DNA from: an uncultured Acidobacteriota bacterium
Lineage (GTDB): Bacteria; Acidobacteriota; Terriglobia; Acidiferrales; UBA7541
Reading direction: 5' to 3'
Length of the DNA: 64,000 nucleotides
NCBI GenBank assembly: GCA_963788725.1
Contig: CAWBHT010000003.1
Span: forward strand, 224,354-288,353
Below, in pieces: positions 39,360-49,078 of the stretch. The translations under genes and the position numbers were made by a program. Position 1 is the stretch's first letter; each line of letters opens with the position of its first letter. The notes beneath the pieces were generated by a model. It made no database searches, was not told the DNA's origin, and saw only the letters and a program-made list of their open reading frames with translations.

Positions 39360-41630
39360 ATGTCAGAACTTCCGCAATCCATCGGGCCGTACCGAATTTT
39401 GTCCAAAGTCGGTGAAGGCGGTATGGGTGTGGTTTACAAGGCGGAAGATCAGCGACTCGGCCGCGTGGTCGCCCTCAAAGTGATCCGCGAATATCGCTCG
39501 ACCGACACTTCCCGCCAGCAACGTTTCTGGCAAGAAGCTCGCGCAGCCGCCCAGGTGGCGCATCCAAACGCCTGCCGCCTCTACGACATCGCTGAAAATG
39601 ACGACCAACTCGTCCTCGTCATGGAATTCATCGAAGGCGACTCGCTTGCCCTGCGTCTGCTGCAAGGGGCAATGCCGCCGCGTGAGGCCGCGCAAATTAT
39701 TTTGTCCTTGCTCTCTGCTCTCGAGGCCTTCCACAAGTTGGGCATCGTTCATCGCGATTTGAAGCCCGGCAATATTTTGCTCTCCGCTGCCGGAACAAAG
39801 CTGCTCGATTTCGGTATCGCCAAACAAATGCCGCTGACGCCGCTGCCGGAAACCGCCGCTACCGTCCTCGACACCACCATGCCCGGCTCTTTTCTCGGCA
39901 CGCCCAAATATGCCTCGCCCGAACAATTTCGCGGATTGCAGGTCGACGCGCGCTCTGATCTTTTTTCCGTCGGCGTTATTTTTTTCGAAATGCTCACCGG
40001 ACACCGTCCTTTTCCAGGCGAATCGTTTGGCGACCTTGCGCACTCCGTTTTGTACGGCACTCCGCCTGCTCTCAGCGGCTCGCCCGCGATTTCCGCCATG
40101 GGTCGCATCGTGCACCGCGCCCTGGCGCGAGACCCGCAGGAACGCTACCCGACCGCAGAGTCCATGTCCGCGGACATTCGCGCCGCTCTCTTGATGGAAG
40201 GCATCGACACCAAAGCCCGTGCTGAAGCGCTGCGTCGCCTCATCGTTCTGCCATTCCGAATGTTGCGCGCCAGCGAGGAGACGCAATTTCTCGCCTACAG
40301 CCTGCCCGAAGCCATCACCGTTTCACTCGCGGGACTCGACAGTCTCGTGGTGCGCTCGTCTCTGGTCGCTTCTCAATATCCGGTGGAAACTCTTGATCTG
40401 CAAAAAATCGCGCGCGAGGCCGAGGTTGACATCGTTCTTACCGGAACCCTGTTAAGCGTGGGTGAGCAGATTCGTATCACTGCGCAACTTACCGAAGCGC
40501 CCAGCGGCACCTTGCTTTGGTCGCATTCCGCGCATGCCACCGCGCGCGAACTCCTGCAACTTCACGACGATCTCGTGCGCCGCGTCGTCGATTCGATTCT
40601 TCCCTCGCTCACTCCGCAAGAGCATCGCTCGCTGCAACAAGAGCGTCCCGAAAGCCCCACCGTTTATCAGCTTTATTTGCAGGCCAACGAATTTTGCCGC
40701 CAATGGGAAAATCTGCCCACGGCCATCGCATTGTACGAGCGCTGCCTCCAGCTGGAAGACACGTATGCGCCCGCTTGGGCTCGCCTTGGACGCGCGCGGT
40801 GGATTCTCGACAAATACAGTCGCGGCTCACTGGAAGGCATGCGCGCGGCGGACGACGCATTCCAGGCCGCGCTGCGTCTGAATCCCGATCTTACTCTCGC
40901 GCATAATCTTTACACCGCGCTGCAGGTGGATCAGGGACAAACGTTCGACGCTATGCGCCGCCTGTTGGATCGCGCGCAAAAGCGGCGCAGCGATCCCGAG
41001 CTTTTCGCCGGCCTGGGTCACGTGTGCCGCTATGGCGGAATGCTTCAGGCTGCCCTCGCGGCGCAGCGCGAAGCCCGGCGGCTTGATCCGCGCATTTCCA
41101 TCAGCATCAATCACACCTATTTCATGCTCGGCGATCCGCAAAGCGCATTGGAATCCAGCGGACGCGATTTCGGATATGCGGTGGGATTCGCGCTCGCCAA
41201 ACTTGGGCGCGTACCGGAAGCGATCGCGACGCTGCGCGAACGAGAGCTGACCAATCCGCCCAGACTCGCAAAGCTGTACATTGCTTCGCTGCGTGCGCTG
41301 CTCGAAGGAAATCGTGAGGAGTGTGTCGTGGCCACCGACGAGCTGCTTCTGACCACTTTCCGTGATCCCGAAGGGATGTACTACCAGGCGCTTCAGCTCG
41401 GCTATCTCAACGAACAATCACGCGCGCTGGAGATGTTGCGGCGCTCCGTCGACAACGGTTTCTACTGTTACGCTGCAATGGTCAGCGAACCGTGGCTCGA
41501 TTCGCTGCGTGGCTTACCGGAATTTACCGCCATTCTCCGCAAGGCCCACGATCAGCATCTGGAAGCGTACAAAGTATTTCTCGCCGCCGGGGGCGAAACA
41601 CTCCTCGGACTCCACGCCGGCGCGCACTGA
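39360..41630 (+). CDS. Hanks Ser/Thr kinase with TolB-like and TPR domains
   Basis: GEGGMGVVY, VALK, HRDLKPGN, DFG, YASPEQ; LIVLPF...IRITAQL domain followed by TPRs. Confidence 0.92.
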   Translation: MSELPQSIGPYRILSKVGEGGMGVVYKAEDQRLGRVVALKVIREYRSTDTSRQQRFWQEARAAAQVAHPNACRLYDIAENDDQLVLVMEFIEGDSLALRLLQGAMPPREAAQIILSLLSALEAFHKLGIVHRDLKPGNILLSAAGTKLLDFGIAKQMPLTPLPETAATVLDTTMPGSFLGTPKYASPEQFRGLQVDARSDLFSVGVIFFEMLTGHRPFPGESFGDLAHSVLYGTPPALSGSPAISAMGRIVHRALARDPQERYPTAESMSADIRAALLMEGIDTKARAEALRRLIVLPFRMLRASEETQFLAYSLPEAITVSLAGLDSLVVRSSLVASQYPVETLDLQKIAREAEVDIVLTGTLLSVGEQIRITAQLTEAPSGTLLWSHSAHATARELLQLHDDLVRRVVDSILPSLTPQEHRSLQQERPESPTVYQLYLQANEFCRQWENLPTAIALYERCLQLEDTYAPAWARLGRARWILDKYSRGSLEGMRAADDAFQAALRLNPDLTLAHNLYTALQVDQGQTFDAMRRLLDRAQKRRSDPELFAGLGHVCRYGGMLQAALAAQREARRLDPRISISINHTYFMLGDPQSALESSGRDFGYAVGFALAKLGRVPEAIATLRERELTNPPRLAKLYIASLRALLEGNREECVVATDELLLTTFRDPEGMYYQALQLGYLNEQSRALEMLRRSVDNGFYCYAAMVSEPWLDSLRGLPEFTAILRKAHDQHLEAYKVFLAAGGETLLGLHAGAH

Positions 41631-41799: not shown

Positions 41800-42210
41800 T
41801 TACTTTCGAGCGTCCACTGGCGTGATGGCGATCACCGCGCGCTCCCGCGGCCGAAACTTCGCAAAGAAATCGAGCAACTGCTTCCATGGAAAGTATTTCT
41901 TGTTCAGCAGCTGCATGCCGTATTCAAAATCAACACCCGCAACAATCTCTGCGCGCGCCTGCACCCAATCACCCAATACTTTCCCGCGCATATCGCAAGG
42001 CGCGATGCGCACCTTCGCATTGTTGCGAATCCGCTTCACCTTGCCACTATTTCCGATGGTGTAAACGAACAGCCTGGCCTCCCCGCTTCCAAGGCCTCTG
42101 GCGGGATCAGCCGCAAACCAAATCGGCGTCGCCACTCCCAGCCCGCTCTTGCGAAACGTCTCCAGACTCAAATATTTCAAAGCCGCAAACGTCTCAAAAC
42201 CCATACGCAT
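41800..42210 (-). CDS. PPOX-class (F420-dependent-like) oxidoreductase
   Basis: YLSLETFRKSG..VATPIWF, SGKVKRIRNN, IAPCDMRG, KKY. Confidence 0.88.
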   Translation of the reverse strand: MRMGFETFAALKYLSLETFRKSGLGVATPIWFAADPARGLGSGEARLFVYTIGNSGKVKRIRNNAKVRIAPCDMRGKVLGDWVQARAEIVAGVDFEYGMQLLNKKYFPWKQLLDFFAKFRPRERAVIAITPVDARK

Positions 42211-42267
42211 CGCCCTCGGCTAGTTCGATGCGCCCATCTTAGATATGTCACCGCTCTGTCTGTCTTA

Positions 42268-42311
42268 AGGTCGCCACCCTGCGTTTTTCAGCGTGCGCAT
42301 TTAGACCCAAC
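42268..42311 (+). repeat. REP-like dispersed repeat, copy C
   Basis: AGGTCGCCACCCTGCGTTTTTCAGCGTGCGCATTTAGACCCAAC. Confidence 0.65.
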
Positions 42312-42348
42312 TACAAGTACCAATCTGCACTTGTCCACACATACCATC

Positions 42349-42867
42349 TCACTTCCTCACATAAACCACTTCCTCCGAAAACGTATCCTTCTGATTCTTC
42401 CGAAATGTCCAAGTCTGCTTGATGTGATTGTCATCCAGAAAAACGTAAACCGCATGATGCATATGTCCGTCATCCGCACTCTTCAAATTCGTGGCGCTGA
42501 TAAAATCGAACGTCAACGTCTTGCTCTCCGGCGCATACGTACCGCGCATCGTTGGCTGATTCCCCGCCACGCAGTAGTGCGTCATCTGCACTTTGTCGCC
42601 ATCCAGGTGGTAAACCGTGGTCATCTCCACCGGTTTTCCGTCGATCGTGTCGCGTGATCGCTCCAGAATTGCCGAGCCGCCTCCGGTCAACTCGATGTCC
42701 AGTGTCGACTTCTCATTCTTCACGGATTGCGATTCCCAATGGCCAACCATCGACTGCAATTTGGCGAACGCTTCCGGTTTCGTCACCGCTGTCGCGTGCG
42801 CACGGGTGGAAACTACGAAACTCAATACAATTGCGGCCGCAAGGAATCCGTGCATCTTCTTCATCAC
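42349..42867 (-). CDS. Secreted beta-barrel hypothetical protein
   Basis: Signal peptide (AHA), FAKLQSMVGHW, MTTVYHLDG, MTHYCVAGNQP, GHMHH; AAGGAG RBS. Confidence 0.8.
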   Translation of the reverse strand: MMKKMHGFLAAAIVLSFVVSTRAHATAVTKPEAFAKLQSMVGHWESQSVKNEKSTLDIELTGGGSAILERSRDTIDGKPVEMTTVYHLDGDKVQMTHYCVAGNQPTMRGTYAPESKTLTFDFISATNLKSADDGHMHHAVYVFLDDNHIKQTWTFRKNQKDTFSEEVVYVRK

Positions 42868-42935
42868 AATCTCCTTTTAAATCGATGACCAACCCGCATC
42901 ACGAATGTACTTAACTTGGGTCTACGCGCCTCGGT

Positions 42936-43304
42936 CTACTTAGCTTCCACCGTCTCCTCCAGCGAAGCTGTTAACTTTCCCCAGCGCTGCGTAGCAAATC
43001 CCACAATCGCGCCCAGCAACATTCCAGGCAGCATGATGTCCCAGAACAGCGCCATTCCCGCATGCATCACGACAACCAAGCTCAGAATCGCCGCAATCGC
43101 AATTCCGGCAATGATCCCAATCACGATCGACCGAACTCTCTGCGACAAATACCCGATCGCGACTCCCGCCACCAATCCCTTCAACATCGAAAAGGTAATC
43201 ACGCTGCCCATCATCGGCCCAAGCGAAGGCTCGAAAAATCCGCTCAAGCCGTCCATCAAACCCAATGTTCCGCCCACGATCAAACCGAGCACCGGCTTGG
43301 TCAC
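42936..43304 (-). CDS. Small 4-TM membrane protein (paralog B)
   Basis: Four hydrophobic Gly-rich helices; aligns end to end with 43883..44239. Confidence 0.8.
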   Translation of the reverse strand: MTKPVLGLIVGGTLGLMDGLSGFFEPSLGPMMGSVITFSMLKGLVAGVAIGYLSQRVRSIVIGIIAGIAIAAILSLVVVMHAGMALFWDIMLPGMLLGAIVGFATQRWGKLTASLEETVEAK

Positions 43305-43428
43305 AATTTTCTCCAGCCGCCTTCCGTTCTGCGGCGCTTTCTAAGTGGCGATTTCTTCGTCAGGGCACGCTGTACCCATGCCACACCTGAATTGCTGCCG
43401 GCGTTTTCCATGCATTATCGCTAATGCA

Positions 43429-43794
43429 TCACTTCGCGTTCGGATCTGCCTGCATCACACCGAAAACATTTCCTTCCGTGTCCTGCAGGTACGCGAAGTA
43501 GCCGACCGTCGGAATCGGTGTCTTCTCCATGATCAGTTTCCCGCCAGCATCCTGCACCGCTTTTACCGAGGCGTCGACCGATTCCACGCCGATGGTGTTG
43601 GTTGTGCTGGTCACCGGGCCTTGTTTCGGCATCATCCCGCCGTTAATTCCCGGGTGGCCTTCTTCGCCTGTGTTCACCAGCCAATAGTCCATCGTTCCCC
43701 ACTTCTCAAATTTCCAGCCGAAGATCTTCTTGTAGAACGCGGCAGCGCGCTCCGGATTTTCCGCAGGTATTTCAAAATGAATGACTCGAGCCAT
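43429..43794 (-). CDS. VOC family protein
   Basis: VIHFEI, FYKKIFGW, GINGG, AGGK, GYFAYLQDTEGNVFG; AGGAGAGG RBS. Confidence 0.92.
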   Translation of the reverse strand: MARVIHFEIPAENPERAAAFYKKIFGWKFEKWGTMDYWLVNTGEEGHPGINGGMMPKQGPVTSTTNTIGVESVDASVKAVQDAGGKLIMEKTPIPTVGYFAYLQDTEGNVFGVMQADPNAK

Positions 43795-43882
43795 GACCTC
43801 TCCTTGTTTTTACTGCGATCTACAAATCCGTCTCAATTCACGATCAAACTGTCAGCGTCAAATCACTCCCTGACGTCTAGCA

Positions 43883-44239
43883 TCAGCGTGTCGCCGATGC
43901 GGTGACAGCATTCGTGCCATAACGCTGGGTCGCGTACCCCACGATCACTCCCACCAGACTTCCAGGCAAAATGATCGGCAGATAGTAGCCGTGCTGGAGA
44001 TATGCGACCAAGAACGCCAGCACGAAACCGACGGCGAGCCCAAACACAATTCCCAGCAACAGGGAGTGCACTTTCCGCGCGAAGAATCCGATGGCCACTC
44101 CCGCGATAATGCCCTTGGCCGTCGAGCCGATGATGATACCCGCGAGTTGCGCGCGCACCGCCGGAGTGAACCACGCAGTAGCGCCGTCGATCGCACCGAG
44201 AACCGCGCCGAGCAACAGTCCAAGCAGAATTTTATTCAT
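43883..44239 (-). CDS. Small 4-TM membrane protein (paralog A)
   Basis: LG.IDG, S..KG..AG..IG, LPG, IVG.ATQR motifs shared with paralog B. Confidence 0.8.
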   Translation of the reverse strand: MNKILLGLLLGAVLGAIDGATAWFTPAVRAQLAGIIIGSTAKGIIAGVAIGFFARKVHSLLLGIVFGLAVGFVLAFLVAYLQHGYYLPIILPGSLVGVIVGYATQRYGTNAVTASATR

Positions 44240-44315
44240 CGAGGATCTCCCTTGTGGCTCGGGATTCTCTCCCTGTTTACGGTTCTTTACAACGCAGGAG
44301 AAATTTCCTTTAGGA

Positions 44316-45362
44316 CTAGCGGTGAGAAATCAGCAGTAAAATGACGCGCATCACTAAGTACGCTGCTATCAAAAGGATAGCGACGTTGTTACGCCGATAA
44401 AATCGTACTGCCTTATCGAGAAATGTCTCGCGCCGCGCGCTCACGGGCAATCCATCCAGGTATCGCGACACGTCCGATGCAAATTGCGTCACGCTGCCGT
44501 AGCGGTGTTCAGGACGCTGCGCTGTAGCCTTCGCGCAAATCGCTTCCAATGATTTGTCGAGCATGTGGCTGGAAGGATTTTCTTGCGAGGCTGCATTCGC
44601 TGGCGAATCGCGCACCAGCAGAAATCGCAGCAACGCGCCGAGCGAGAAAATATCGCTGCGTTCGTCCAGTTGGGCGTGGTCACCGCGAGCTTGCTCGGGC
44701 GACATATAGCCAGGTGTTCCCATCACTGTGCCATGCGCAGTGGTCGCGGCGGTTTCCGTACGCTCGCCTATCGCGCCGGTTCCGGAAGTCTGGCGAACGA
44801 TCGTGGAATCAGAACCAGATTCGGCTGCGGAAGCAGCCACCTTCGCGAAGATCTTTGCTAACCCCCAGTCCAGCACCAGGACTTCGCCGAACGAGCCGAC
44901 CATCACGTTCGCCGGCTTCAGATCGCGATGCAAAATCCCGCGCACATGAGCGAATGCCACCGCCTCGCAGATACGCAAGAAGAGACGCAGCCGGTCCGAC
45001 CGCGACTCAACGCCTTCCAGATGCTTATCCAGGCGTTGGCCTTCGACAAACTTCATGGTGTAGAAGACGCGGCCATCTTGCAGCGTACCGACGTCGTGCA
45101 CTGGCACGATTCCCGGATGCTCCAGGGTCGCGAGCACCTGCGCTTCGCGAATCAGTCGGCGAGCCAGTTCGCCGCCGCGATCCTCGACGTCCAGGACCTT
45201 GAGCGCAACGCGGCGTTCGAGTTTTTCGTCTCGCGCGGCGTAGATCAAACCCATTCCGCCGCGAGCGACTCGCTCGAGCAATACGTAACGTGTTCCGGCA
45301 AGATCCGGAGCATCACTAAGATCGCGAAGCCGATCGAGCGCCTTGTCGGTGAGGAATTTCAT
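44316..45362 (-). CDS. Ser/Thr kinase with a single C-terminal TM and no sensor domain
   Basis: ARGGMG, VALK, HPGIVPVH, HRDLKPAN, DWGLAK, GTPGYMSPEQ; ends in NVAILLIAAYLVMRVILLLISHR. Confidence 0.92.
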   Translation of the reverse strand: MKFLTDKALDRLRDLSDAPDLAGTRYVLLERVARGGMGLIYAARDEKLERRVALKVLDVEDRGGELARRLIREAQVLATLEHPGIVPVHDVGTLQDGRVFYTMKFVEGQRLDKHLEGVESRSDRLRLFLRICEAVAFAHVRGILHRDLKPANVMVGSFGEVLVLDWGLAKIFAKVAASAAESGSDSTIVRQTSGTGAIGERTETAATTAHGTVMGTPGYMSPEQARGDHAQLDERSDIFSLGALLRFLLVRDSPANAASQENPSSHMLDKSLEAICAKATAQRPEHRYGSVTQFASDVSRYLDGLPVSARRETFLDKAVRFYRRNNVAILLIAAYLVMRVILLLISHR

Positions 45363-46129
45363 TACGCGCCCTTGCCAGGCTTTCTACCGAATAGTGCCAG
45401 CGCTTCACGCTGGAATTCTTCTTCGCTTCCACAGATCTCGCGAAGCCGCTCTTTCGCGATCCGCCGAAACTCACGGCGCGCCCACGACAGCGCGTTCGTG
45501 ACATCGGTTAGGGGAATGCTGTGCTTGCGTGCCAGATCGTCGTAGGAAATATCCGGCGCGGCGTCGATATCGTATTCCTCGAACAACAGAAATGTGGTTG
45601 CACGTTCCCGATCGTCGCAGAGCTTTCGCAAGTCATCAACCGCCAGCGTGAACAGACTGCGGATCCACTCCTTTTCAAAGAAATCTTCCATCAATTCGGG
45701 AGATGGAATCGCGGCAGGATCGACAACTTGCTCGCGCAGCTCTCCTTCGGCTTGCTGAAAGTCCAGCGCCACATGCAGTACGTTGCCGCCACGTTTCTGG
45801 CGCGACGCCGCCTTTTCCTGATTCATGACAAAGCTGTCGGCACAAATGCGCAGATAGGTGCGTAAGCGGCTTTTTGCCGGATCGTATTTCGGGAGCAATT
45901 CGCGCTCCAACAATTCCGCGAAAAATCCTTGTGTCAGATCCTGCGCATCTTCGGCGGGACGATTCCAGCGGATACGAATGTATTTGTAAACCGGACGCCA
46001 GTAAGCGGCGCAGAGCGCGGCTAGCGCACGATCGCGCGCAGCCTCATCTGTGCTGCGCGCCGCGTCGATGACCGACCAACGAGTGGGCGGAAATTTGTCG
46101 CCGCCGTAAGGTTGGCTGTCGGAGGGCAC
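45362..46129 (-). CDS. ECF-type sigma-70 factor (kinase-associated FxxTxWS type)
   Basis: FPPTRWSVI, YWRPVYKYIR, DAQDLTQGFF, RLRTYL, QKRGG, FEKEW, region-4 HTH SYDDLARKH; TAATG-coupled to the kinase. Confidence 0.88.
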   Translation of the reverse strand: MPSDSQPYGGDKFPPTRWSVIDAARSTDEAARDRALAALCAAYWRPVYKYIRIRWNRPAEDAQDLTQGFFAELLERELLPKYDPAKSRLRTYLRICADSFVMNQEKAASRQKRGGNVLHVALDFQQAEGELREQVVDPAAIPSPELMEDFFEKEWIRSLFTLAVDDLRKLCDDRERATTFLLFEEYDIDAAPDISYDDLARKHSIPLTDVTNALSWARREFRRIAKERLREICGSEEEFQREALALFGRKPGKGA

Positions 46130-46132
46130 GGG

Positions 46133-47458
46133 TTATTCATAGCGGAGAGCTTCGACAGGATCAAGCCGGGCGGCCTTCCAGGCGGGGTACACGCCAAAGA
46201 CGATGCCGATCATGGCGCACATGACCAAAGCAGTGATAATCCAGAAAAGTGAGAGCGTGGCGGTGACGCCGAGTCCGTAGTGCAGCGTCAGCGTAAAGCC
46301 AGATCCCAGCAACACGCCGATGATCCCGCCTACGGCGCTGAGGGTCACGGCTTCGATCAAAAATTGCGCCAGGATATTGTTACGCTTGGCGCCGATAGCT
46401 TTGCGGACACCGATTTCGCGGGTGCGCTCGGTGACGGACACCAACATGATGTTCATCACACCGATGCCGCCAACGATTAAACCGACCGAAGCTACGGCGA
46501 ACATTAGAATGAAAATCATGCCGCTGATCTTGTTCCACAGATCAAGGAAATAGTCGGACGTGAAAATCGCGAAATCGTCTGGTTTGCCGTTGCTGAGACG
46601 CCGCTTCCGACGCAGCAATTCGCGCGTTTCGTCAACCGCTTCGGCGACGCTCTTGGGGTTCGCCGCCTTCACAAACAGAACGTAGTCTTTTTGATTTGGA
46701 TAGAGCTTGCGCAGCGAAGTTACCGGCATAACGGCGATGTTGTCTTCTGGATTGGAGCCGCCAGAGATGCCCTGCTTGCGCTTTTCCATCGTGCCGATGA
46801 CGGTGAAGAGCTGGCCGTTCAGAGTGACTTCTTTTCCGATCGCGTCAGAGGCAGAGCCGGGAAAAAGCGTTCGCGTGGTGTCGTAGCCGAGCATGACGAC
46901 TGGCGAGCGATGCTCGGTATCGTTCTCATCGAAAGGCCGGCCGTACTCAATTTTCATGTCGAAAATACGATTGATCGACGGCGAATTACCTTGCAGGATG
47001 ACGTTTTTCGCGCGGAATGCGCCACGGCGAACGTCGGCGGTGCCGGCACCGAACTGCGGCATGAAAATTCGCATGGATGGCGAAGCGGCGGCCACATGCG
47101 GCAGCTTTTCGATGTCGTCGGCCCATTCGGGCTGCAATTCCTTGCGGTTCAGCCATTCCGAAGGTGGACGGGAAAGCGCAGCCCAGGGGAATCGGTAGCA
47201 GATGATGGTGTCGGAACCGAGCTCGCGAATTCCGGCGAGCACATTGTCGTTCAGCCCATTGATGAGCGCACTGACGGTGATGACGGTGGTGATGCCGATG
47301 ACGATTCCTAGAATGGTGAGCGAGGAACGCAGTGGATTTTTCCGCAGCGTGTCGAAAGCGAGAAATAAGGCTTCGCCAAGCTGCAAGGCGCTCTTCGGAG
47401 CATGCACGCGCGCCGGCAGCATGGCGCTTTGCGGGAAGGTTTTGTCTAACGTCAACAT
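46133..47458 (-). CDS. ABC transporter permease (MacB/FtsX family)
   Basis: RSSLTILGIVIG, GGIGVMNIMLVSVTERTREIGVRKAIGA, PAWKAARLDPVEALRYE. Confidence 0.93.
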   Translation of the reverse strand: MLTLDKTFPQSAMLPARVHAPKSALQLGEALFLAFDTLRKNPLRSSLTILGIVIGITTVITVSALINGLNDNVLAGIRELGSDTIICYRFPWAALSRPPSEWLNRKELQPEWADDIEKLPHVAAASPSMRIFMPQFGAGTADVRRGAFRAKNVILQGNSPSINRIFDMKIEYGRPFDENDTEHRSPVVMLGYDTTRTLFPGSASDAIGKEVTLNGQLFTVIGTMEKRKQGISGGSNPEDNIAVMPVTSLRKLYPNQKDYVLFVKAANPKSVAEAVDETRELLRRKRRLSNGKPDDFAIFTSDYFLDLWNKISGMIFILMFAVASVGLIVGGIGVMNIMLVSVTERTREIGVRKAIGAKRNNILAQFLIEAVTLSAVGGIIGVLLGSGFTLTLHYGLGVTATLSLFWIITALVMCAMIGIVFGVYPAWKAARLDPVEALRYE

Positions 47459-47465
47459 TCTTTAG

Positions 47466-48719
47466 CTACTCCGATCGCAAAGCGACGACCGGATCGAGGC
47501 GCGCCGCTTTCGATGCCGGATAAGTTCCGAAAAATAATCCGACGCTGAGCGCCACGAACAGTCCCCCTATTACGGACCACAACTGCACGGCGCTGGGCAG
47601 GGGCGTGACCCAGGAGACGATCTTGGCGAGGAGCACGCCGAAAACAACGCCGAGCACTCCGCCGATGGCGGCTACAGTAGAAGATTCAATCAGAAATTGC
47701 AGCAGGATGTCGGAGCGCCGCGCGCCGATGGCTTTGCGAACGCCGATCTCGCGGGTTCGCTCGGTGACGGACACCAGCATGATGTTCATGATGACGATTC
47801 CGCCGACGATCAGGGAGATCGAGGCAATGCCGATCATCACCACAAAGAACGATCCGCTGATGCTCTTCCACAAATCGAGAAAAGAGTCGGAGGTTTCGAC
47901 GGCGAAATCATCCTTGGTCGCGTAAGCGAGATGATGGCGGCCTCGCATGATCTGGCGAACTTCATCGACGCTGGTTTGGATGTTGGCGGCGGCTCCGGCG
48001 CGAATGGTGACACGCAGGGAATCCTGCTGGTTGCCGTACCCCTTCTTGTAGGTGCTGAGCGGCAGGATAATCCAGTTATCAAGCGAAGTGCCGAGCGCGG
48101 AGCCTTCCTTCTTACCTACGCCGATCACCTGGCAGGGCGTGTTGTTCCAGCGAATCTCTTTGCCGACTGGATCGACTCCGGGCATCAGGTTCTCGACGAT
48201 ATCGTTGCCGATGACGCAAACAGGGGCGGCATCGCGAAGATCGGTCTCCGTGATATGGCGCCCGGAGACGAGATCAACGTCGTACAGCTCGGGCATTTGC
48301 GGCGTCCAGGCACGCAGATTGGTGTCTTTGAGTGAATTGACGCCGCTTTTGGTCTCGACACGGCCGCCGAGCGCGGCGCCGACTTCCTTGCAGGACGTGC
48401 AGAATTCGCGCACGGCTTCGAAGTCGTCGTAAGTGATGCGCTTGCGTTTTTGAAATTCCAAAAAATCGTCGACATTGGTGATGATCGAGGGCTGTTTCGA
48501 GAGACCGAACACGTCAGCGCCGAGTCGGAACACGCGAGTGGCGACGTACTGGTTGGCGCCATTGATGAGGCTGACGACGGCGATGACCGAGGTCACCCCT
48601 ATGACAACGCCGATGAGAGTGAGGATGCTGCGAAGCTTGTGCGCCCATAGGCTGGAGGTGGCAATGGCCACCGCTTCGGTAAGGTGCATGGACGATGCGC
48701 GCTGCATGGGCGAGGGCAC
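47466..48719 (-). CDS. ABC transporter permease (MacB/FtsX family)
   Basis: KLRSILTLIGVVIG, MNIMLVSVTERTREIG, PASKAARLDPVVALRSE. Confidence 0.93.
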   Translation of the reverse strand: MPSPMQRASSMHLTEAVAIATSSLWAHKLRSILTLIGVVIGVTSVIAVVSLINGANQYVATRVFRLGADVFGLSKQPSIITNVDDFLEFQKRKRITYDDFEAVREFCTSCKEVGAALGGRVETKSGVNSLKDTNLRAWTPQMPELYDVDLVSGRHITETDLRDAAPVCVIGNDIVENLMPGVDPVGKEIRWNNTPCQVIGVGKKEGSALGTSLDNWIILPLSTYKKGYGNQQDSLRVTIRAGAAANIQTSVDEVRQIMRGRHHLAYATKDDFAVETSDSFLDLWKSISGSFFVVMIGIASISLIVGGIVIMNIMLVSVTERTREIGVRKAIGARRSDILLQFLIESSTVAAIGGVLGVVFGVLLAKIVSWVTPLPSAVQLWSVIGGLFVALSVGLFFGTYPASKAARLDPVVALRSE

Positions 48720-49078
48720 ATACGATTATACGTCGACGATTAAGCGATGTTTCGAGGCAAGCGGCGATGCGCTACGGCTGAGAACCGCAAGTTATTGTGC
48801 TTTTTCGATTTCTTCGGGGCCCACCCACCTTTCTATGGATCATTATTCAATCGGAGTTAGCAAGTACTTGGGACGTATCTGTCTCATTCGAAAACCTTTA
48901 CGGCCCATCTGCAAGAACGTGACATAGTACTATCTGCGACGCTGAGTGGATTCTCCTTCGAGCGTCGTTCCTCAGCACGTGCATGTGATGCTACTGTGGC
49001 TATGGAGTGCCAATCCCACATTGGTACCGATTTTGTCGATGCTGTGTATCTGTCCGAGTCCAGACGCTATGAAGCTTG

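Follow-up and report, generated by a model that had tools for sequence, protein, structure and literature searches.

The window analyzed here is a 64,000-nucleotide stretch of acidobacterial DNA, to which all positions refer. On its minus strand, at 41800..48719, lie nine co-oriented genes: two MacB/FtsX-type permeases, an extracytoplasmic function (ECF)-type sigma factor, a Hanks-type Ser/Thr kinase, a small protein with four transmembrane (TM) helices (the first 4-TM protein), a VOC protein, a second 4-TM protein, a secreted beta-barrel, and a PPOX-class protein. An ORF check of the window found all nine where the original prediction had placed them, with the 7-bp gap between the permeases, the 3-bp gap between permease and sigma factor, and the 1-bp overlap of sigma factor and kinase (TAATG) that it had described; after the kinase, the genes follow at 76, 88, 124, 68, and 138 bp. 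The same prediction had treated the nine genes as one unit, which comparison with relatives did not bear out: all four downstream cargo genes occur together in 21 of the 64 loci that have 3.8 kb of flank. The conserved core is three genes, namely the sigma factor, the kinase, and the first 4-TM protein.

We approached this core from both sides. From the sigma side, the best 80 of 136 stretches bearing this gene were compared: the kinase lies directly behind the sigma gene in 80/80 loci, overlapping it by 4 bp in 55 of the 64 with a called start, and wherever the flank extends to 1.7 kb or more (71 loci), the first 4-TM gene stands behind the kinase. From the 4-TM side, the best 80 of 581 metagenome stretches show the kinase immediately before the 4-TM gene in 65/68 loci and the sigma factor in 38/39 loci whose flank is long enough; of the three 4-TM genes without a kinase upstream, two are second copies behind a VOC gene. 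This neighborhood comparison, which had been proposed as a check, thus confirmed that the 4-TM gene co-occurs with the sigma–kinase pair.

The kinase carries the catalytic Lys, the alphaC Glu, and HRDxKxxN, DFG-like, and APE-like motifs of Hanks-type enzymes, the last two in the variants DWG and SPE, and K55, E73, HRDLKPAN, DWG, PE, and D237 are invariant in 50/50 aligned homologues. It is one of ∼30 Hanks kinases in this genome. Its single TM helix is followed by just three residues. Among the 80 kinase ORFs, six run off their contigs and three are frameshifted or uncalled; the 71 complete ones, about 295 to 406 aa long, all stop at most a few residues past this one helix, and none continues into a C-terminal sensor. 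The claim that this kinase is sensor-less therefore stands, and a truncation or frameshift is ruled out. Within the helix, no variation is seen at L331, Y335, or R339, either among the 50 homologues or in any of 33 phylum-wide rows that include the deeper lineages. These residues are spaced i, i+4, i+8 and so form one helix face, shared by M338, an arrangement that points to a surface for binding more than to a plain membrane anchor. The activation-segment threonines T208 (49/50) and T216 (50/50) are likewise conserved.

Between the kinase stop codon and the 4-TM start codon lies the motif TAAAG-N14-G-K-K-K-W-A-W-A, present in 71/75 training loci; of 77 independent loci, 70 have a site that scores above 15 bits. 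In a genome-wide scan (4.7 Mb), the window site came out on top (29.7, the next sites scoring 20.6 and 19.3). Judging from these matches, the motif is likely read by the module's sigma factor. The original prediction had not noted it; given where it lies, the nine genes probably form two or more transcription units. The motif upstream of the sigma factor in 46 of 78 relatives is a different one, housekeeping-like (TTGTCA-N17-TAGACT-like) rather than ECF-type, so the sigma–kinase pair is probably constitutive and without autoregulation. The window copy has no intergenic space before the sigma gene and must be transcribed by read-through from the permease genes or from a promoter within these; a generic sigma-70 scan of the region found no promoter. 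No ribosome-binding site is evident for either the sigma gene (46130–46170) or the first permease (48720–48731). The permease start is preceded, at seven bases, by a TATAAT, and the sigma gene, at six bases, by a weak −35/−10 pair within the final permease codons; the sequence suggests leaderless starts for both genes. A strict-pattern search for the ECF-type motif in five genomes gave three matches, versus seven for a control pattern, which makes the search as a whole uninformative. One of the three, a good copy of the motif, precedes a secreted YCII-domain gene (L203:1547-1945, genome G041) away from the sigma locus, a possible extra member of the regulon.

Table 1 Features of the locus in the window, in order of discussion
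Feature	Position	Strand	Status	Description
Sigma	45362..46129	-	core	ECF-type sigma factor, 255 aa; own clade, 100/100
Kinase	44316..45362	-	core	Hanks-type Ser/Thr, 348 aa; single C-terminal TM helix 327-345; no outside domain
Promoter-like motif	44285..44312	-	core	ECF-type; -35-like TAAAG 44312-44308; -10-like element 44293-44285
First 4-TM	43883..44239	-	core	118 aa, Gly-rich, unnamed family; conserved K3, D18, S39, K42, G43, P92, T104, Q105
VOC	43429..43794	-	cargo	single-domain VOC/glyoxalase fold; most frequent gene after 4-TM
Second 4-TM	42936..43304	-	cargo	paralogue of first 4-TM, 38% identical, lineage-restricted
Barrel	42349..42867	-	cargo	secreted nitrobindin/OlmO/RsfG-like beta-barrel; conserved H-x-C-x3-NQP; 4-TM fusions in other lineages
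PPOX	41800..42210	-	probable flanking gene	PPOX-class F420-dependent oxidoreductase family
Two MacB/FtsX-type permeases	46133..48719	-	neighbors outside conserved unit

The distribution of the trio was followed in 301 genomes of the phylum, a set that includes the window genome and the unpublished G024, the latter counted once per tally. Sigma matches fall into two tiers, with 29 genomes having a best E of 6e-78 or lower and 39 genomes only 5e-47 or weaker, and a tree of 54 selected sigma rows splits the tiers at 100/100. The 4-TM protein occurs in 29 of the 301 genomes, 28 of them in common with the top sigma tier, and in 0/39 of those with only the lower-tier, sister-clade sigma. As for exceptions, G045 has the sigma factor but neither kinase tail nor 4-TM protein, and G033 has a decayed 4-TM fragment. 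Where the full 60-residue kinase tail (E <1e-20) is present, in 27 genomes, the 4-TM protein is always there too, even when it is divergent (G120, G084, and G155) or on another contig (G041, G057, G174, and G278). Among 20 lower-tier loci that were fetched, 16 have a kinase nearby, and all of these kinases are longer, with WD40, TPR, CHASE2, or multi-TM parts. Because the carriers are related, sensor loss and 4-TM gain count as one origin and not as many. At six of the sister loci (L183, L185, L186, L191, L195, and L196), the ∼500-aa kinase ends in an unnamed Gly-rich multi-TM domain (PLVHIA...GIIAIGD), another candidate intramembrane sensor. Three loci (L063, L028, and L042) are recorded under other phyla yet are 63 to 97% identical to acidobacterial ones, and they are probably mislabeled or misbinned.

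The sigma factor is of ECF size and belongs to the sigma-70 family, with a Ser/Thr kinase at +1, an N-terminal family signature (FxxT(R/x)xS), and a long sigma2–sigma4 linker. Its sigma2 region aligns with SigC and SigK. It matches Sigma70_r2 weakly (E 7e-4, below the cut-off), and TIGR02937 is matched by 39/39 aligned members at best 2e-15, the window copy reaching 2e-7, below the cut-off. No close paralogue was found in this genome, and the nearest homologues are mostly from Acidobacteriota, chiefly Candidatus Acidoferrum/Acidiferrum. The original prediction held that the sigma2.2 region keeps its acidic residues, unlike the phosphorylatable site of EcfP. The second half of this claim was correct and the first was not at the third position: the window reads D61-A62-Q63-D64, with a neutral residue at the normally acidic position 63, which among 120 near homologues is Q in 104, E in 15, and R in 1, and never Ser or Thr. 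A motif of the type DAQ/ED without a phosphorylatable third residue is expected, because kinase-linked groups other than ECF43 retain DAED-like motifs (PMC8999054, in part).

The best candidate phospho-site of the sigma factor is instead linker position 146, which is Ser in 120/120 near homologues, Ser or Thr in 19/19 sister-clade rows, and Asp in 7 of 15 deep clade members; the invariant T16 and S19 are alternative candidates. In the window, codon 146 (45692–45694) encodes Leu, one transition from Ser, while S143 is kept. The same codon is carried by a strain differing by 16 bases over 1.4 kb, so Leu146 is not an assembly error. With this Leu, and with its own upstream promoter space lost, the window sigma factor may be rewired or partly uncoupled. 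Three sigma copies (L161, L162, and L163, from G045 and G010) have no kinase or 4-TM gene nearby; all three have Asp at 146 and are nested in an Asp-rich subclade, which makes them one event, and they are possible constitutive derivatives.

For the 4-TM protein, AlphaFold gives a model of four helices with a pLDDT of 92. It had no structural match in Foldseek at E 0.001 and no Pfam or PDB match; the best VIA score (Z 6.9) amounts to a generic helical bundle, and SMR and Fluc were not among the structural matches listed, which does not exclude either. The family is large, with 3,372 clusters at 90% identity and 746 representatives at 50%. Its intramembrane charges are nearly invariant (D18 in 349/351 rows and K42 in 378/380), and D18 and the kinase's R339 are both predicted to lie in the outer half of the membrane. 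We also examined longer homologues (the best 120 of 361), of which 112 consist of a 4-TM part, a signal-like helix, and a barrel. Other partners, in single representatives, are an AHSA1/START domain (P0267) and a THAP4-like barrel (P0283 and relatives), so that across relatives the 4-TM part is joined to outside ligand-binding folds of three kinds. The linker of the 4-TM/barrel fusions has an AxA motif at its end and is possibly cleaved; the fusion therefore shows co-function and not a receptor. Four of the 120 are kinase/4-TM fusions, all of which look like frameshifted or chimeric gene calls and were not used. The 4-TM protein probably has a protective role of its own.

The remaining downstream genes are variable cargo. 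At the 64 loci, VOC is present in 39, PPOX in 31, the barrel in 30, and the second 4-TM protein in 25. VOC is the next gene after the 4-TM gene in 79 of 109 loci with a called next gene, and in G084 it stands directly after the kinase, behind the motif; unrelated VOC subfamilies stand in at single loci. The second 4-TM protein has the same predicted orientation as the first, and a heterodimer of the two with opposite topologies was ruled out, as both show the same charge pattern by inspection. In G310 (L221), a MacB pair 87 to 89% identical to that of the window is followed directly by PPOX, the whole block from sigma factor to barrel being absent; for this reason, PPOX is probably a flanking gene. 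Of the predicted output regulon of VOC, PPOX, and the barrel, PPOX probably drops out and VOC and the barrel come and go between loci; the 4-TM protein itself also looks like the main output.

In Pfam and NCBIfam scans, both permeases matched MacB_PCD and FtsX, the kinase Pkinase, the VOC protein glyoxalase/VOC families, and PPOX TIGR03666 (above its cut-off). The two 4-TM proteins and the barrel had no family above the cut-off, and no anti-sigma domain of known type was found. The modeled barrel of fusion P0150 folds like OlmO (Z 14.1, rmsd 3.7, 132 residues aligned), THAP4 (13.4), Rv2717c (13.2), and RsfG (11.3), a Z range of 11 to 14 for OlmO, the nitrobindins, and RsfG, with the nitrobindins at 12 to 13. 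In the barrel family, H205, C207, and NQP are kept in about 94 of 97 rows; a THAP4 Pfam match occurs in 1 of 97 members, a different barrel. The family extends beyond the module, to 64/301 genomes. On the opposite strand, a convergent gene for a 756-aa kinase with TolB-like/FlgO and TPR parts (39360–41630, plus strand) adjoins the cluster; it is one of many in the genome and did not turn up as part of the module.

We tentatively favor, at slightly less than an even chance, a reading in which the sigma factor, the sensor-less single-pass kinase, and the 4-TM protein work as a trio, the 4-TM protein being both the target of the sigma factor and a gate on the kinase helix, so that feedback replaces the sensor. 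The sigma factor and kinase would be made constitutively, and the 4-TM protein would bind the conserved kinase TM helix and restrain or gate the kinase. A membrane-active or small hydrophobic or reactive compound would occupy or perturb the 4-TM protein, directly or via an outside barrel partner. The kinase, once released, would autophosphorylate (T208/T216) and phosphorylate the sigma factor, with linker Ser146 as the best candidate. The sigma factor would then raise the 4-TM protein together with small-ligand-binding cargo (VOC, calycin-type barrels, AHSA1/START, and YCII), and these products would protect the cell and damp the signal. A natural sensor-less kinase would need such an outside brake, because PknS tethered to the membrane but deprived of its periplasmic domain undergoes autophosphorylation in vivo and full-length PknS does not (PMC13147305, in part). 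Also in favor of this reading are the naturally short kinase with its invariant helix face, the conserved intramembrane charges of the 4-TM protein, its constant company with the kinase tail and absence from genomes with only sister-clade sigma factors, its fusions to outside folds, and the changes at S39 or G43 in orphan copies. A fuller version is unlikely in our estimate: here the trio would be a split receptor kinase whose sensing half is a separate new 4-TM protein, docking on the kinase helix (R339 versus D18), taking interchangeable outside modules (two kinds of calycin barrel and AHSA1/START), and transcribed by the sigma factor it controls, with the linker Ser as the switch and a change from Ser to Asp preceding kinase loss in one lineage.

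Several observations weigh against the trio acting in this way. Among 24 genomes of the genus, the 4-TM protein is found in 10 and the sigma factor in six, and four of the 10 carriers hold orphan 4-TM genes without sigma factor or kinase tail: G301 (93% complete; locus L216), G310 (96%; L217), G307 (74%; L218), and G313 (56%; L219). The G301/G310 orphan pair has a dN of 0.13 and a dS of 1.6, like kinase-linked pairs, and is thus under purifying selection, so the 4-TM protein is useful without the kinase, and its co-occurrence with the kinase could reflect only a regulator needing its target. The paired kinase/4-TM alignment (152 pairs, Neff about 45) is too shallow for covariation. The notion that the 4-TM protein is the split-off multi-TM tail of the sister-clade kinases was rejected, with no detectable homology to that tail (HHalign probability 0.8%). 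Finally, several kinase-linked members have Asp, Asn, Arg, or Ala at position 146, and the window copy has Leu, which makes the phospho-site uncertain.

It is possible, though on the unlikely side, that the 4-TM protein is output only (a protective membrane protein or transporter) and that the kinase senses the membrane by self-association of its helix or hears an unlinked partner. The 4-TM gene's place behind the sigma-type motif fits this, as do the second paralogue, the selected orphans, and the asymmetric linkage, in which the kinase never occurs without the 4-TM protein and the 4-TM protein sometimes occurs without the kinase. The ECF-type motif was found at 0/4 orphan genes in sigma-less genomes; the G313 and G307 copies sit behind housekeeping-like motifs, the sigma–kinase block of G313 being gone. 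Left unexplained would be the coincidence of sensor loss and 4-TM gain on the sigma tree, a weak point since it is one origin, and the changes of S39, G43, or A103 in orphans (three genomes only). These residues are 97 to 98% conserved elsewhere, and their changes are consistent with a lost partner surface. That the 4-TM protein is instead an anti-sigma factor is quite improbable: it has the position expected for negative feedback, and ECF22 has putative four-TM anti-sigma factors (PMC7826278, in part), but it lacks a cytoplasmic domain (helix 1 is preceded by two residues, the loops are very short, and the C terminus has ∼10 variable residues), and the kinase-less sigma copies have no 4-TM gene near them.

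Two further rivals look to the neighboring genes. The cytoplasmic VOC protein might be the kinase brake, like KbpA on AfsK in Streptomyces, which binds unphosphorylated AfsK and blocks its autophosphorylation (PMC6988585, in part). VOC is the most frequent next gene, its placement in G084 would suit a brake, and it weakly matches the KbpA model (NF053614; 33 bits, E 5e-8). That score is far under the 250-bit cut-off and covers half of the model, KbpA having two VOC domains and the module protein one; VOC is also missing from 25 of the 64 loci and replaceable by unrelated subfamilies, and we regard this reading as improbable. The original prediction had coupled the permeases to the sigma–kinase pair by flux sensing, as BceAB signals to BceS. 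In favor is the 3-bp gap to the sigma gene in the window and at L063, the junction being spanned by another strain's contig. Yet in the comparison such a gap is found in 1 of 65 loci, an orthologue lies within 200 bp in 10/65 and within 8 kb in 27/65, and the loci of all deeper lineages have none; the sigma genes of most relatives (46 of 78) have their own promoter-like motif, and the window cluster has no ATPase gene, whereas BceAB-type systems have a co-conserved ABC transporter with its ATPase beside the kinase. These synteny counts, together with the pair standing without the module in G310, largely refute the coupling as predicted; signaling from the permeases is very improbable indeed, and the MacB pair is a local neighbor of the trio.

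Kinase-linked ECF sigma factors are already known (PMC7826278 and PMC8103513, each in part). The characterized sigma–kinase pairs are only two, both ECF43, and how DAED-keeping kinase-linked sigma factors are switched is open (PMC8999054, in part). The literature searched, which covered neither subscription papers nor parts of the PMC7826278 supplement, described neither this clade nor its sensor-less kinase, 4-TM family, or motif, and TAAAG appears nowhere as a string in the searched part of that supplement. The clade offers a minimal test case, with one sigma factor, one short kinase, one defined target motif, and a candidate phospho-site in the linker with natural Ser, Asp, and Leu variants. 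An unnamed membrane family of more than 3,000 clusters comes with the system, and the module is found in about a tenth of the sampled genomes of a dominant soil phylum.

The closest likeness is to the ECF43 pairs (EcfP–PknT of Vibrio parahaemolyticus and EcfK–PknS of Xanthomonas citri), in which a single-pass Hanks kinase likewise occupies +1 behind the sigma factor and a classical anti-sigma factor is lacking, and the conserved Ser/Thr/Asp position in the trio's linker resembles T106 of EcfK (PMC13147305, in part). ECF43 differs in having a Thr in the DAED position, where the trio has DAQD or DAED and no Ser or Thr (0/120), and in a kinase with one TM helix and periplasmic TPRs, where the trio kinase has nothing beyond the helix (71/71). 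The trio adds the 4-TM gene and sits in Acidobacteriota and not Proteobacteria; no ECF43-type model was among the NCBIfam matches of its sigma factors, a different sequence family. A kinase at +1 is also found in planctomycete ECF59, 60, 61, 62, and 217 and proteobacterial ECF283, and the trio sigma factor shares a longer linker with ECF59 and a weak Pfam sigma2 match with the unclassified ECF60 (PMC7826278, in part). The multi-TM, TPR, or WD40 tails of the sister-clade kinases are like those of these groups (same source, in part). In ECF59 and 60, a Ser is said to replace a DAED acidic residue (PMC8103513, in part), and the trio sigma factor lacks that Ser. A sensor-less kinase, a downstream 4-TM gene, and a conserved target motif are absent from the descriptions of the six groups in the covered parts of these sources.

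Other likenesses concern the cargo and the logic. The module barrel, as modeled in P0150, shares its fold with nitrobindin/THAP4, OlmO, and RsfG and differs in its signal peptide, its own H-x-C-x3-NQP motif, and an identity of 10 to 18%; being exported, it cannot act as an RsfG-like anti-sigma factor. ECF42 and ECF56 have similar small-ligand-binding contexts (YCII and glyoxalases), but their sigma factors are regulated by C-terminal extensions, which the trio sigma factor lacks (PMC7826278, in part). The same proposed logic, in which a sensor-less kinase is joined by a small inhibitory accessory membrane protein, is that of LiaFSR and VraTSR (PMC7492735, in part). [quoted passage not shown] If the 4-TM protein does gate the kinase, the trio would be a Ser/Thr-kinase counterpart of these intramembrane-sensing three-component systems.

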